From an uncultured Candidatus Saccharibacteria bacterium (GTDB lineage Bacteria > Patescibacteriota > Saccharimonadia > Saccharimonadales > CAYZZS01), in NCBI GenBank assembly GCA_964620175.1, contig CAZUIL010000004.1:1-57529 (forward strand): a DNA stretch of 57,529 nucleotides, read 5' to 3'. The position numbers and the translations under genes were made by a program. Below the pieces are notes generated by a model, which saw only the letters and a program-made list of their open reading frames with translations, was not told the origin of the DNA and did no database searches. This document shows, one piece after another, positions 22,900-56,209 of this stretch; positions within the stretch are counted from its first letter, which is position 1; each line of letters begins with the position of its first letter.

Positions 22900-23760
22900 C
22901 TAGCGGATCAGTGACCACTGGCCACCGAGGCTCTTAATGCGGCCGTTAATTTCGAGCATCGTAAGGGCTTGGTTAAACGTCTCGGGTGACAAGCTGCTTT
23001 CATGCAGCAAAAGGTCGGTTGTTGCGACCCCACTTTGAATGAGCTCTAGGATAGCCAATTCTTCTGGTGTGTCAGCATACAGGGTGTTGGCGGATGCAGT
23101 CTCCTGCGCGATGCCCCAGGCATTTAGTATGTCCCGGGCCTCAGTAACCGGTATGGCACCCTGCTTAATCAGGTTGTTTGTACCTTCTGAGCTGGCGTTC
23201 GTAATATTGCCTGGCACGGCGAAAACATCCTTGCCCTGGTTAAGGGCAAAGTTAGCGGTATGCATCGTTCCGCTCTTGGCGGCGGCTTCAGTGATTAGCA
23301 CCCCTTTTGCCAGACCGGATACGATCCGGTTTCGGGCAATAAAATGCTGCCTTAGCGGCGGCGTGCCGGCCGGGTATTCGCTGACAAGCGCTCCACCTTG
23401 CCGCACTATTGTTTCGGCAAGCCCCCTGTGCGCGCTTGGGTATATGGCATCTAGGCCGGCCGGTAGCACGGCAATGGTCGCGCCAGCCGATTCAAGCGCC
23501 GCCTGGTGGGCGGCAGCATCAACGCCGTATGCCAAGCCGCTGGCTATTACTATGCCTTTGGTTGCCAGGCTGCGGACAATATCGTAGGTGACCGCTTTAC
23601 CATATGGAGTAATGCGGCGGCTGCCGACTACAGCGAGTACTGGCTGTGACAAGAGGCGTTCCAGGTCGCCGATAACAAACAGCTCTTTCGGCGGCTGCGG
23701 TATTAGGGTAAGTGTTTGGGGGATGGTTCCCCTATCAAGCGTAAGCTTATTGATTTTCAT
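22900..23760 (-). CDS. dprA: DNA-processing protein DprA
   Basis: Rossmann-like DprA core (VVGSRR.T.YG......L...LA..G..I.SGLA.G.DA.AH) and a C-terminal winged helix. Confidence 0.9.
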   Translation of the reverse strand: MKINKLTLDRGTIPQTLTLIPQPPKELFVIGDLERLLSQPVLAVVGSRRITPYGKAVTYDIVRSLATKGIVIASGLAYGVDAAAHQAALESAGATIAVLPAGLDAIYPSAHRGLAETIVRQGGALVSEYPAGTPPLRQHFIARNRIVSGLAKGVLITEAAAKSGTMHTANFALNQGKDVFAVPGNITNASSEGTNNLIKQGAIPVTEARDILNAWGIAQETASANTLYADTPEELAILELIQSGVATTDLLLHESSLSPETFNQALTMLEINGRIKSLGGQWSLIR

Positions 23761-23779
23761 GCAATAATGTTAATTAGTA

Positions 23780-23808
23780 TTGACACAAAAGCATATTTTT
23801 GCTAAAAT
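23780..23808 (+). promoter_or_regulatory. near-consensus promoter with extended -10
   Basis: TTGACA (23780-23785), a 17-nt spacer and TG-c-TAAAAT (23800-23808). It points away from dprA into the non-coding gap. Confidence 0.6.
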
Positions 23809-23811
23809 CGC

Positions 23812-24252
23812 AACTTGTAAGTCCGCCAGAGGTGGAACTTACGTACCTTATACCCCCAATTCTAACTATGGATCCGCAGCTGGGCAATGGCCCCTTGCGT
23901 CCATTCCCTAGTTGCGGACCCACAAGGTTAGACTGTTTTAGAGCGTGCTACACAAGTTGTTACCCTCCACTTGTACAGCACTTTTCGCTTCCAGCGGATA
24001 ATAAGCGCTCTAAAACAACAGACTCGTCAGGATATCGTTTGCCGGTATCGTGGCTGGTCTGTTCCCTTTAACCCCGCATTCCCCCCTCGTTGTAGTTGAG
24101 TGGCGGTGATATGACGGTAATACCTATGAGTGGGCCCGGCAGCTGCCGGGAGGCCTTCAAGGTGGGTTGAAGGGTGCAATATAGGCTCAAGACAGCTTGA
24201 GCCTGAAAATGAGCTTCCAGCGGTGCCCACCCCCTCTGGAGGCTCTTTTTTT
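23812..24252 (+). ncRNA. candidate structured non-coding RNA of unknown family (~440 nt); strand tentative
   Basis: The 490-nt gap between pth and dprA has no plausible ORF and is bounded by a strong promoter and an intrinsic terminator on the plus strand. It is packed with helices, including a 12-bp perfect stem (23934-23945/24006-24017) and hairpins at 24135-24150, 24154-24173 and 24184-24203. Details are in the findings. Confidence 0.5.
24211..24252 (+). terminator. intrinsic terminator (also serves convergent pth)
   Basis: GAGCTTCCAG (24211-24220) pairs with CTGGAGGCTC (24236-24245) in a 10-bp stem that includes one U-G pair on the plus strand, followed by T7 (24246-24252). The pth stop codon overlaps the T-run. 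Confidence 0.7.
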
Positions 24253-24892
24253 ATGTGATAAAGCTGCGGGATTGGGCCGTAGTGGTCATATCACCATAGA
24301 TATATTCGGATAGCAGGGCGCTGGCTTCTCTGGTGAGCGCCTTGAGGTGCTGCTGTTCATCTTTGTTGAATTTTCCCAGTACGAAATCTGCGCCGTCGGC
24401 CTTCTCTGCCAGCTCGTTACGGATGCCGATACGAATGCGCTTAAAGTCACTGCCAATGGCTTCGATAATCGACAGGACGCCCTTGTGTCCGGCTGCGCCG
24501 CCGCCTGATTTACTGCGTAGTTCCCCAAAGGGTATATCCAGTTCGTCCTGGACAACGATGGTCTGCTGTGGAGGGATCTTATAAAACTGGCAAATTGCTG
24601 CCACTGCCCGACCGCTGAGATTCATATAGGTCGTGGGCTTGGCAAGTATGATCCGTACATTACCCATAAGTTGAGACGTGAGCTGTGCGCTGAAGTCCTT
24701 TTTTTCTGTCCATGCCGGAAACCCGTTCGCTTCAGCAAACGCATCCACGCAGGCAAAACCGACATTGTGCCGGGTACCAATGTACTTTTTCCCCTGGTTG
24801 CCAAGGCCTACTATCAGATAGGTCTGCTCTATGCCGAGCGTATATAGCGGTATGCTGCTGGAGACTTGCGGTTTCTTCTGGAACAATGCCAT
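24251..24892 (-). CDS. pth: peptidyl-tRNA hydrolase
   Basis: LIVGLGNQGKKYIGTRHNVGF and the rest of the Pth fold motifs, with a ~25-aa N-terminal extension. Confidence 0.9.
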   Translation of the reverse strand: MALFQKKPQVSSSIPLYTLGIEQTYLIVGLGNQGKKYIGTRHNVGFACVDAFAEANGFPAWTEKKDFSAQLTSQLMGNVRIILAKPTTYMNLSGRAVAAICQFYKIPPQQTIVVQDELDIPFGELRSKSGGGAAGHKGVLSIIEAIGSDFKRIRIGIRNELAEKADGADFVLGKFNKDEQQHLKALTREASALLSEYIYGDMTTTAQSRSFIT

Positions 24893-24930
24893 GGGACAAG
24901 TATTGAGTATTACCGGTAATGTGGCAAGTG

Positions 24931-26313
24931 TCAGTTGCCTTCCTTTTGATGTTTGTGCCGGGGCGCTGCCCTGTCAAAGAACCAGAATCTTACAGGCGAG
25001 CCGGTAAAGTCCCAATGTTCACGGAAATCACGTTCCATAAAGCGTTTGTAGCTCCAGTGGAGGAACTTGGTATGTGCGCCAAAGATTTTGAAGTTTGGCG
25101 TAGGGTTGTCTGTCTCTTGTACCATGTAGTGCAGTTTTGGCTGGCGGTTTTTTAATCCCGCAGGCGGATGTTTGACGGTGACTGCCTGCAGCCATTTGTT
25201 GAGCTCAGGGGTTGTAATCTTTTGCTCGCGGCGCTGGACGATCTCGCGTGTCAGCTCAAAGAGCCTTGTGACATTTTGTCCGGTAACGGCACTCGTAAAT
25301 ATGAGCGGCGCCCATGGCACGAAGGCATAATCGTGCTGGATTTGCGGGGCAATTTCATCACGGGTAAAGGCGGTTTTTTCAACTGAGTCCCACTTGCTTA
25401 CCACTAAAATGAGCCCCTTGCCAGCCTCTTTTACCATGCCGGCAATTTTTTGGTCGAGCTGGACAGAGAGTTCATTGGCATCGATTAACAGCAGGCAAAC
25501 GTCAGCCTGCTCTATGGCGGCCAAAGCGCGTATCACGCTGAACCGCTCTACGCCTTGCCCTATTTTGCCGCTCCGTCGTATGCCGGCCGTATCCAGCAGC
25601 TCGATCTCTTGGCCTTGATAGCGGACGGTCGCCCGGTTAATATCCCTGGTTGTTCCCGCCCGGTCAGCAACGATAGCCTGTTGTTTTTTCGCGAGCGTAT
25701 TGAAGAGGCGTGACTTGCCAACGTTCGGCCGGCCGAGGAGGGCCAGACGTATCCGATCCGGCGCTTCGCTGATCCGTGCACTCGGGATGTAGTGGGACAA
25801 GGTAGTCAGTAGCTCATCAATGCCCCGGTTCTGGGTGGTGCTTGTTGCGAGGATTGGCTTAATACCCAGACGTTCAAAGTATGACAGGTCCACGCCCTTT
25901 GCCTTATCGATCTTATTGACGATCAAAAACACCGGCTTTTTGCTTCTTAGAGCCATTTTGGCGACCCGGCGGTCCTCCTCGTTGATGATGGTATCGGCTT
26001 CGACAACTACCCAAATAATATCCGCACTGTCGGCTGCCTGTTGGATTTGCTCTTGGATCGTAAACTCAAACTTGTCCTCCGGGTCTTTCACCCCTGCCGT
26101 ATCGACGAGCCAGAAATCCTGCTGCCCGGCCTTATCTTCTTTGCTGCCAGCGGTGCTCGGCAGCGAGGCTTTCGCCATGATGCTGTCCCGGGTCGTTCCT
26201 GCTTCGGCGGCAACTATCGCCTCCCGGCGCTCAAGCACAGCATTAAACAGACTGGACTTGCCGACATTGGCACGTCCGACTATCGCGACGATGGGCGCTT
26301 TACGGGTACTCAT
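24931..26313 (-). CDS. der: ribosome-biogenesis GTPase Der (EngA)
   Basis: Two tandem GTPase domains (GRANVGKSSLFN and GRPNVGKSRLFN P-loops; DTAG motifs) plus a KH-like C-terminus. Confidence 0.95.
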   Translation of the reverse strand: MSTRKAPIVAIVGRANVGKSSLFNAVLERREAIVAAEAGTTRDSIMAKASLPSTAGSKEDKAGQQDFWLVDTAGVKDPEDKFEFTIQEQIQQAADSADIIWVVVEADTIINEEDRRVAKMALRSKKPVFLIVNKIDKAKGVDLSYFERLGIKPILATSTTQNRGIDELLTTLSHYIPSARISEAPDRIRLALLGRPNVGKSRLFNTLAKKQQAIVADRAGTTRDINRATVRYQGQEIELLDTAGIRRSGKIGQGVERFSVIRALAAIEQADVCLLLIDANELSVQLDQKIAGMVKEAGKGLILVVSKWDSVEKTAFTRDEIAPQIQHDYAFVPWAPLIFTSAVTGQNVTRLFELTREIVQRREQKITTPELNKWLQAVTVKHPPAGLKNRQPKLHYMVQETDNPTPNFKIFGAHTKFLHWSYKRFMERDFREHWDFTGSPVRFWFFDRAAPRHKHQKEGN

Positions 26314-55870: not shown

Positions 55871-56209
55871 TTACACCTCCTTATCCCAATCTTTAGCAAG
55901 CGTTGAGCGGACTTCCGGTTTGGCGGTCGTTTCCGCTTCATCTGCCTTGCGCCGGGTCTTGCGGGCAGCCTCGCTCACCGCTTCGCTGAAGTTGGCTTTC
56001 GCTTCCTTCGCCTTTTCTAAGCCTGCCGAAGCCTTTGACGTAGCGCTCTCGAGCTTGTCCTTGGCGCGCAATTTCATATCGTGGGCTTCATCCTTGAGCT
56101 GCCGCCTCGTTTCCCGGCCGCTCTTCGGAGCGAACAGCACGCCTAGCGCTGCTCCTGCCGCCGCGCCAACAAGCATCGCACCAAATGTATTCGCCTTTGA
56201 TGCCTGCAT
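55871..56209 (-). CDS. YtxH domain protein
   Basis: [33 protein letters not shown] followed by a charged helical region. Confidence 0.7.

Follow-up and report, generated by a model that had tools for sequence, protein, structure and literature searches.

The window analysed here is a stretch of 57,529 nucleotides (nt) (positions 1 to 57,529 of contig CAZUIL010000004.1, assembly GCA_964620175.1) from an uncultured Candidatus Saccharibacteria bacterium. It contains a 490-nt gap (23761-24250) between dprA (22900-23760, minus strand) and pth (24251-24892, minus strand). In this gap, a first-pass annotation made from the letters of the DNA had proposed an unassigned, highly structured noncoding RNA (ncRNA) with its own promoter and terminator. 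The proposal was borne out: we found more than 130 homologues of the RNA with strong covariation and no Rfam match. Pfam confirmed DprA and Pth, as well as TopA beyond dprA and Der/EngA beyond pth. The relatives recovered via DprA were metagenome-assembled genomes (MAGs) of Candidatus Saccharibacteria or Saccharimonadales, showing that the host is a Saccharibacterium, in agreement with the earlier placement of the DNA in the Candidate Phyla Radiation (CPR). The longest open reading frame (ORF) in the gap has at most 90 amino acids (aa), and the gap ORFs are not conserved across 108 homologues. A search for tandem repeats in the RNA locus found none.

Promoter and terminator of the RNA gene

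The gene is preceded by a sigma-70-type promoter on the plus strand (Table 1), which matches 11 of 12 consensus positions, has an additional TG, and was the top site in a scan of positions 23000-25000. It is invariant in all 14 genome-derived sequences, with GTATTGACA and TTTG(C)TA(A)AAT unchanged or nearly so, confirming the near-consensus promoter called in the first pass. Transcription probably starts at ~23812-23816. The predicted transcript is ~435-438 nt long here and 320-660 nt in relatives.

At the 3' end, the hairpin P7 combines a GC-rich stem with a U-run. It corresponds to the intrinsic terminator with a 10-bp stem and seven T residues (24211-24252) that had been recognized previously, and its stem is paired at each position in at least 107 of the 108 homologues (99.7% overall), with compensatory changes at 9 of 11 pairs. 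The T-run is kept in host copies. P7 was absent from a simple terminator scan because its loop is longer than 8 nt. Since an A-run lies ahead of it, P7 can terminate the convergent pth too.

The distance of 20 nt between the -35 box and the dprA start codon, which the first-pass annotation had pointed out, was found to be correct. Thus, either the dprA promoter is located inside the RNA gene or minus-strand transcription crosses this gene, and overlapping divergent transcription of dprA and the RNA is possible. No recognizable Shine-Dalgarno (SD) sequence precedes dprA (positions 23761-23887). The sole minus-strand promoter-like site (23887-23859; 9/12) is located inside a nonconserved hairpin.

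Conserved structure and genomic context

Homologues were recovered in two ways. When Saccharibacteria genome loci were collected via DprA, the element was present in 13 of 14, directly upstream of and divergent from dprA. The nhmmer E-values for these loci ranged from 1e-14 to 1e-32, with DprA only 51-60% identical. Metagenome contigs were found using an exact pattern from the central hairpin (P3a plus the 3' strand of P3). All of the at least 120 contigs obtained hold the element, most at full length and others clipped at contig ends. The covariation set consisted of 108 distinct full-length homologues of 320-660 nt.

The alignments revealed invariant blocks separated by hairpins that are free in sequence and length. 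At 47 base pairs in the 108 sequences, 97.0% of the cells were paired (88.6 ± 0.2% in shuffles), 395 cells showed double changes (113 ± 15 in shuffles), and the covariation score was 0.257 (0.098 in shuffles). None of 500 shuffles attained the observed pairing or covariation values. Sliding the partners by 1-3 columns lowered the pairing to 31-53%. In the long-range helix P4, which RNAalifold also predicts, all nine positions are paired in 108 of 108 sequences; the pair 24072:24166 is CG in 98, GC in 9, and AU in 1, and the pair 24069:24169 is UG in 103, UA in 4, and CG in 1. Similarly, the P3 pair 23936:24015 is UA in 75 sequences, UG in 23, CG in 9, and AU in 1, and another P3 pair, 23944:24007, is CG in 90, UG in 14, UA in 2, and AU in 1. 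In P1, all six pairs change on both sides (23819:23840 is AU in 56, GC in 31, and GU in 13), with only 80% of the cells paired owing to a poor alignment in this part.

The strand was also determined. The plus-strand transcript folds with a minimum free energy of -195.7 kcal/mol versus -139.1 ± 5.9 kcal/mol for shuffles (z = -9.6), and z is -6.2 for its reverse complement. The frequent U-G pairs at 24069:24169 and 23936:24015 would be A-C mismatches on the minus strand. Together with the conserved promoter and terminator, they settle the plus strand, which the first-pass annotation had favored with a caveat.

Several helices described in the first pass were found to be conserved and covarying: GTAAGT/ACTTAC (P1), the 12-bp helix TGTTTTAGAGCG/CGCTCTAAAACA (P3), and the hairpin at 23946-80, whose loop is invariant. 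Others are present in the window, in regions that differ in length and sequence among relatives. These are the helix 23870-81/23910-21 with its inner helix and the hairpins CGCT/AGCG, CCCGGC/GCCGGG, and GGCTCAAG/CTTGAGCC. The window and ~19 of 108 relatives, in which CUUCA(A/G) precedes GGUGGG, can form the hairpin CCTTCAA/TTGAAGG (24154-73). Because this hairpin takes the 3' strand of P4 as its 3' arm, it rivals a universal covarying helix that the first pass had missed, and it is at most a lineage-specific alternative to P4; the two could constitute a lineage-specific conformational switch. The long-range closing helix 23826-35/24227-39 was discarded, as it involves the variable P1 loop and lacks conservation. 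Finally, the 11-mer GCTTCCAGCGG does occur twice (23987 and 24213), but its first copy is in a variable, nonconserved hairpin, and the repeat is a coincidence of this single sequence.

Two further pairings were considered. A pseudoknot or kissing interaction between GGUGG and CCACC of the P7 loop is possible but not supported: GGTGGG is kept in ~100 of 108 sequences, and the changes in the G strand (~13 of 108) are never compensated in the loop. In 3 of 108 sequences the G strand (24161-65) is lost while the P7 loop is unchanged, and G24166 covaries with C24072 in P4, not with the terminator loop. RNAalifold also proposed pairing of GUUAG with a downstream ACUAAC. This pairing was rejected, since neither the window nor L059/L140 has the downstream partner, and the upstream P2 partner changes in a compensatory way instead. 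In addition, the P3 strands GUUUUAGAGC(G) and CGCUCUAAAACA (23935-23945/24006-24017) resemble the start of the Streptococcus pyogenes Cas9 repeat and the lambda/rrn boxA CGCUCUUA, respectively. Because these strands are paired with covariation, the likeness is probably coincidental. No nuclease gene adjoins the RNA.

Table 1. Positions of the elements of the RNA gene in the window and of the loop motif in phage contigs
Feature	Position	Strand	Description
Sigma-70-type promoter	23780-23808	+	-35 TTGACA 23780-85; 17-nt spacer; extended -10 TG 23800-01; TAAAAT 23803-08
P1 hairpin	23817-23842	+	GTAAGT 23817-22 / ACTTAC 23837-42; variable loop
J1/2	23843-23860	+	Single-stranded, C-rich GUACCUUAUACCCCCAAU; nearly invariant in A1 and A2; no pairing partner found
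P2	23861-23932	+	TCTAAC 23861-66 / GTTAGA 23927-32; 98.6% paired; CG to UA compensation in L059/L140
P2a	23867-23926	+	Variable hairpin within P2; 0 to >200 nt in relatives
P3	23935-24016	+	GTTTTAGAGCG 23935-45 / CGCTCTAAAAC 24006-16; closes two-hairpin domain; 99.0% paired
P3a hairpin	23946-23980	+	Outer stem variable; inner AAGU/ACUU 23954-57/23969-72 invariant in 14 genome-derived sequences
P3a loop	23958-68	+	UGUUACCCUCC; invariant in 14 genome-derived sequences
P3b	23981-24005	+	Variable hairpin; CGCT/AGCG in window; sequence and length vary, >100 nt in L007
Extra hairpin CAGAC...GTCTG	24019-24061	+	Replaces usual J3/4 AUACUAAC; missing from most relatives
P4	24064-72/24166-74	+	Long-range helix; DNA strands CCCTTTAAC/GTTGAAGGG, RNA strands CCCUUUAAC/GUUGAAGGG; closes P5
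P5		+	Variable 3' domain within P4; in window includes CCCGGC/GCCGGG 24135-50
GGUGG	24161-24165	+	GGGGUGG in many relatives; directly 5' of P4 3' strand; complementary to CCACC of P7 loop
P6	24184-24203	+	Variable hairpin GGCTCAAG/CTTGAGCC; missing in some relatives
P7 terminator hairpin	24211-24252	+	Stem 24211-20/24236-45; extra pair 24222:24234; T7 at 24246-52
P7 17-nt motif	24220-36	+	GCGGTGCCCACCCCCTC; holds pair 24222:24234 and 11-nt loop 24223-33
Phage motif	Nine-member L181 family		Between portal and scaffold/major-head genes
Phage motif	L177:2670-2706, L186:3160-3196		Inside 3' end of portal ORF, read AVPTPS
Phage motif	L179		After major head gene
Phage motif	L221		Upstream of TerL
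Phage motif	L176:2756-2792, L191:3583-3619		ORF after primase
Phage motif	L177, L186, L176, L191, L202:4831-4867		Inside long ORFs (portal C-terminus, post-primase ORF, 212-aa ORF)

The gene order topA-(dprA)-RNA-(insert of 0 to 3 kb)-pth-der was found in nearly every locus with enough flanking sequence. In ~17 loci, dprA is missing, topA lies 70-320 nt upstream, and the RNA is intact. This does not support the fallback interpretation of the first-pass annotation, a structured leader or antisense regulator of dprA. In L017, a more distant, low-GC Saccharibacterium (TopA 46% identical), pth, dprA, and topA are co-directional without the RNA between them. Since the RNA is kept without dprA and is missing from L017, it is an RNA of one clade and not a dprA leader. 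Its distribution is best explained by vertical inheritance confined to one clade of Saccharimonadales. In L017 (2492-5354) the genes abut with a 9-nt gap, and the RNA clade differs from this arrangement by inversion of pth plus gain of the RNA.

The 3' flank of the RNA is a hypervariable insertion hot spot. In a search for a conserved partner gene beside the RNA, the ORFs between RNA and pth in 50 host loci included no recurrent family, the largest cluster comprising three loci. Where the RNA-to-pth interval spans 0.4-3 kb (e.g., L038, L055, L084, and L066), it contains small ORFs that are mostly co-directional with the RNA. In L100 (870-1640, minus strand), the whole terminator hairpin (~42 nt with stem) is directly repeated around one ORF of ~200 aa, just 3' of the RNA, which looks like a cassette insertion that duplicated the RNA 3' end. 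A Saccharibacteria dprA-RNA-pth locus was also present in L009 (DATHNF010000066.1), a 6-kb contig titled as a Verrucomicrobiia MAG. Its nhmmer scores equal those of the metagenome locus L090, and it is probably mis-binned.

Comparison with known RNA families gave no relative. At the gathering thresholds of Rfam 15, the window yielded three tRNAs elsewhere and none at the RNA locus. ARAGORN likewise detected three tRNAs elsewhere in the window, no transfer-messenger RNA (tmRNA), and nothing at the RNA locus. The first-pass annotation had asked for an Rfam cmscan of both strands, and this search found no family: with permissive filters (E ≤ 10), positions 23700-24320 (621 nt) gave only chance-level matches to microRNA, ctRNA, and S15-leader models (E ≥ 0.12, far under the gathering scores). 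No family was assigned to the element in 16 related host and phage loci at gathering thresholds.

The RNase P RNA models (RF00010/RF00011) did not match at E ≤ 10 in the region or at gathering thresholds in the window and the 16 loci. The segment GUAAGUCC at 23817 sits in P1 and varies among relatives, the 3' end of the RNA is its terminator, and both ends are unpaired, unlike the P1 closure of RNase P. For tmRNA, there was neither an ARAGORN prediction nor an Rfam match; 6S RNA gave no Rfam match, and the consensus here is multi-domain with unpaired ends. No match was obtained to the small or large bacterial models of signal recognition particle (SRP) RNA, or to the covariance models of OLE, ROOL, GOLLD, raiA, HEARO, and other large ncRNAs in Rfam. 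A type III toxin-antitoxin RNA does not fit a locus without tandem repeats that is followed by convergent pth or, elsewhere, by unrelated small ORFs. Nor does a cis-acting leader or riboswitch: the terminator is followed by convergent pth, and dprA is divergent and dispensable for the presence of the RNA. YrlA (RF02553) gave no match to the RNA of the window, and no T-loop or D-arm signal was found in it. Literature searches retrieved no report of the RNA, its loop sequence, or any Saccharibacteria small RNA, and according to a 2022 TM7x transcriptome preprint Saccharibacteria are without validated small RNAs. Judged by these comparisons, the RNA is a new family, without a relative among 4,227 Rfam families or in the searched literature.

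A terminator loop shared with phages

The loop motif GCGGUGCCCACCCCCUC (24220-36) of P7 was outside the metagenome search pattern. It is unchanged in ~88% of the homologues (105 exact host copies). Another 14 host copies differ at one or two bases, mostly by C·U to U·U changes and in one case by a swap of the outer pair from G-C to A-U. The exact 17-mer was also present in 53 contigs out of 2.9 million viral contigs, with one copy each; many of these contigs are 36-46 kb long. A one-base variant had 2 viral matches versus 53. As 16-mer controls, the P3a loop and the G strand gave 28 and 22 viral matches, respectively, which are in unrelated coding or ribosome binding site (RBS) contexts except for L171. 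Weak nhmmer matches in L150, L155, and L156 were dismissed as chance extensions.

Of 52 viral copies of the 17-mer, 46 sit directly on a contiguous stem that is unrelated in sequence and has at least 4 bp, in most cases 6-15 bp. The stems of 49 distinct viral hairpins are 94.3% paired (53.7% in shuffles), and no fewer than five of the six types of pair occur at every position of the stem. The loop is selected independently of its stem and of the RNA that carries it, and the hairpin is reused by phages as a module. A covariance model detected exactly one hairpin per viral locus and no additional copy in the window. Wherever the orientation of the flanking genes was readable, the phage motif is on the sense strand. 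A T-run comes after the motif in only ~8 of 49 phage hairpins, and therefore termination is not its common function. Taken together, the hairpin motif common to the host ncRNA, phage mRNAs, and a phage RNA resembling Y RNA is a second new element that is not in Rfam 15.

The contigs with the motif encode portal, major head, terminase, primase, and endolysin proteins and are thus genuine phages. In terminase and capsid proteins, they share 25-30% identity with cyanopodoviruses of ~42 kb. The frequent position at the junction of portal and scaffold/capsid genes (Table 1) suggests a role on late mRNAs. In L177, L186, L176, and L202, the motif is read in the frame Ala-Val-Pro-Thr-Pro(-Ser), and L191 is a homologue of L176; coding sequence thus appears to preserve an RNA element at these sites. 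In L181, L185, L192, L194, L200, L203, L208, L209, and L211, the motif hairpin is followed by a CCAGC-TTT-GCTGG hairpin and an AAGGAG RBS. The latter precedes a gene for ~267 aa that lies upstream of the major head gene and probably encodes the scaffold. This arrangement looks like a composite element of a 5' untranslated region. An origin of the common 17-mer as an attP/attB site was rejected based on the location in head genes, the differing stems, and the lack of an adjoining integrase.

Two phage loci (L198:7426-7533 and L197:9450-9570, both minus strand) contain a permuted tRNA-like domain with T-arm, acceptor-like stem, and D-arm, in which the hairpin with the 17-nt loop forms the tip of the acceptor-like stem. 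The domain matched positions 23-87 of the Rfam YrlA model (RF02553), in L198 with 37.7 bits (E = 1e-6; gathering score 69), and ARAGORN detected no tRNA at either domain. The phage match covers the tRNA-like module only and is below the gathering score. The neighboring proteins (661 and 670 aa) had no Pfam or PHROG match, and Pfam detected no TROVE/Rsr protein. When 50,697 GenBank phages were searched for the hairpin with BLAST, a single chance-level match was obtained, and the cultured phages of this database are without the motif. A KhpA-like KH protein was considered as a partner and was present in two phage loci only.

A link to the host clade is provided by the viral contig L171/L228 (IMGVR_UViG_3300049064_000004, 37,957 bp), which contains a complete RNA gene from promoter to terminator. 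This copy shows 89% identity to L145, a host locus, with homology that reaches precisely to the ends of the gene and no further. No dprA, topA, or pth is nearby. The contig also has a second hairpin of the phage type at 6853-89, in inverted orientation. Beside the RNA gene (L171:1-8444) are genes for FtsK/PD-(D/E)XK, RecT, two DNA methylases, and a KhpA-like KH-domain protein, whose products are 53-78% identical to those of seven other viral contigs with the motif. The contig ends 80 nt past the RNA, and the RNA gene belongs either to a phage of this group or to a host chromosome next to a prophage. The presence of the RNA gene beside phage genes ties this phage group to Saccharimonadales.

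Possible functions of the RNA and its hairpin

We propose that the dprA-pth gap encodes a new, independently transcribed, structured ncRNA that would act in trans as a scaffold, with its 3' hairpin as a recognition module, probably for a host protein. Our estimate of the probability of this reading is roughly 45%, and it is put forward as tentative. It builds on a gene whose strand, structure, and conservation are established, and on the modular reuse of the hairpin by phages. The six covarying helices P1, P2, P3, P3a, P4, and P7 form the scaffold, into which lineage-specific hairpins are inserted. This scaffold presents a small number of invariant single-stranded elements, mostly rich in C: ACCCCC in J1/2, UGUUACCCUCC in the P3a loop, and GCGGUGCCCACCCCCUC in the P7 loop. 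The RNA may be an abundant scaffold or a sequestering RNA in a ribonucleoprotein (RNP), and its 3' hairpin may be an autonomous module with a loop that is read sequence-specifically by a conserved host factor. This reader is most likely a protein; the ribosome or another RNA is possible. Phages of these bacteria bear one copy of the loop on their own stems, in late mRNAs and in the RNA resembling Y RNA, and would thereby recruit or titrate the factor.

Recognition of the loop by a protein is proposed because the loop is invariant on freely varying stems. Examples of such loop-specific recognition are U1A, MS2 coat protein, and lambda N with boxB. The lambda boxB, U1A hairpin II, MS2 operator, and PyrR binding loop likewise combine an invariant loop and closing pairs with a free stem and are used as portable tags. 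The loop described here is unrelated to them, with 17 nt closed by G-C, C·U, and G-C around 11 nt, and the likeness is one of pattern only. A bolder version of the proposal, which we regard as possible but doubtful, is that the hairpin is a portable RNA address tag of a conserved Saccharibacteria factor. The 435-nt RNA would then be the main client or regulator of this factor, and phages of these ultra-small epibionts would have grafted the tag repeatedly on late mRNAs, the portal frame, and a tRNA mimic resembling Y RNA to hijack or neutralize it; one phage may carry the entire RNA.

Several points weigh against the scaffold proposal. The conserved GGUGG is complementary to the P7 loop and allows an RNA-RNA contact, and a DNA-level element could also show a fixed strand in genomes with all genes in one direction. 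Some of the invariance follows from the searches themselves. In the metagenome set, that of the P3a loop and of part of P3 came with the search pattern, although the same segment is also invariant in the 14 sequences that were anchored independently via DprA. In the phage set, the invariance of the 17-mer was imposed by the exact-match scan. In addition, the host assignment of the phages is based on one contig.

Among other explanations, we weighed a base-pairing regulator whose C-rich loops pair with G-rich SD regions, with the phage hairpins reprogramming the same targets or competing with the host RNA. Staphylococcus aureus RNAIII, which uses the loop of its terminator hairpin and has a similar size (~514 nt), actinobacterial 6C RNA, and RsaE/RoxS are likewise independently transcribed multi-hairpin RNAs with conserved C-rich loops, including the terminator loop. 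The RNA described here has three or four conserved C-rich single strands (J1/2, P3a loop, and P7 loop). Moreover, the P3a loop is exactly complementary to an SD sequence with spacer, GGAGGGUAACAAC, with chance matches at unrelated phage RBSs, and it is partly complementary at one gene of the window (55871-56209). However, no target stood out among 58 initiation regions of the window, where the duplex energies were like those of shuffled probes: -11.3 versus -10.4 kcal/mol (shuffled) for loop L7, -9.1 versus -8.0 kcal/mol for L3a, and -6.6 versus -6.6 kcal/mol for J1/2, in a weak target test that covered local DNA only (the 57-kb window plus local loci). No recurrent complementary site was found in ~880 kb of host loci, a weak negative since the scan output was dominated by the antisense strand of the RNA itself. 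Seeds are also rarely invariant over 17 nt among hosts whose DprA proteins are ~50% identical. The Rfam models of RNAIII, 6C, and RsaE were not matched, mRNA targets are not evident here, and a loop with 17 invariant nucleotides that phages reuse on unrelated stems is not known for those RNAs. We consider a base-pairing regulator unlikely. We judge it improbable that the RNA serves in a conflict, in which it would hold a toxin, nuclease, or sensor inactive, as in type III toxin-antitoxin systems or abortive infection, and the phage hairpin would mimic an antitoxin or act as a decoy. This idea would fit with the single copy in each phage genome, independent of position and always transcribed in sense, and possibly with a complete phage-borne RNA (L171/L228). 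So would the precedent of phage pseudo-ToxI, a phage mimic of the ToxI antitoxin RNA and thus, as here, of part of a host ncRNA. Unlike ToxI, the RNA has no tandem repeats, no adjoining toxin gene, and no operon with a protein gene; the genes between RNA and pth are non-recurrent, and the fixed housekeeping synteny across the clade is unlike patchy defense islands.

We give little credence to self-assembly of the ROOL/GOLLD type, in which CCCACC(CC) of the P7 loop would kiss GGUGG(GG) of another molecule or form a pseudoknot in cis, and phage hairpins would plug in. The two conserved elements are perfectly complementary over 5-8 nt, and ROOL and GOLLD occur in phages, but the G strand is altered without compensation in ~13 of 108 sequences and destroyed in 3 with an invariant loop, and the pairing would cover at most 8 of the 17 invariant nucleotides. 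Even less probable is a cis element (dprA leader or antisense) or a DNA-level site such as a phage attB. The position of the -35 box 20 nt from the dprA start, with dprA transcription beginning inside or crossing the RNA gene, the terminator hairpin duplicated around an inserted ORF in L100, and the insertion hot spot in the 3' flank are in line with such an element. The persistence of the RNA without dprA and the covariation and G-U pairs on the plus strand speak against it, as do the phage copies, which lie in head-gene modules and not beside integrases. Because phages and hosts have different stems, the terminator would also be disrupted by recombination. Hardly credible is a highly divergent universal RNA (RNase P RNA, tmRNA, 6S RNA, or SRP RNA). 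Its size and strong promoter fit a housekeeping RNA, but none of these families was detected at E ≤ 10 on the 621 nt, ARAGORN found no tmRNA, the ends are unpaired with an intrinsic terminator at the 3' end, and the RNA is missing from the more distant L017, where pth, dprA, and topA abut.

For the proposed scaffold RNA, the closest analogies to known RNAs are functional only. OLE, the raiA motif, ROOL, and GOLLD are likewise several hundred nucleotides long, with ornate covarying structures and invariant nucleotides in junctions or loops; as in our case, OLE and raiA have fixed synteny, and ROOL and GOLLD have a phage connection. They differ in that their models were not matched, they belong to another phylum, and what is widespread in phages here is a single hairpin module and not the complete RNA. 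YrlA is related to the phage loci in which the hairpin caps the acceptor-like stem of a YrlA-like domain; in contrast, the Saccharibacteria RNA has no YrlA signal.

The genomes of Saccharibacteria and other CPR bacteria are tiny, and their intergenic regions are short. Few lineage-specific RNAs are known in this large bacterial branch, and a conserved ncRNA of ~0.4 kb with a near-consensus promoter would be one of them. That reduced genomes have retained it speaks for an important function. The finding adds a new class of large structured RNA plus a separate small hairpin motif. The invariant 17-nt loop offers a handle for fishing out the partner, with loop mutants as clean controls. It is also a new marker by which uncultured phages can be linked to Saccharibacteria as their hosts. 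If the address-tag reading is true, it would represent a previously unknown axis of host-phage RNA mimicry and a new CPR RNP.

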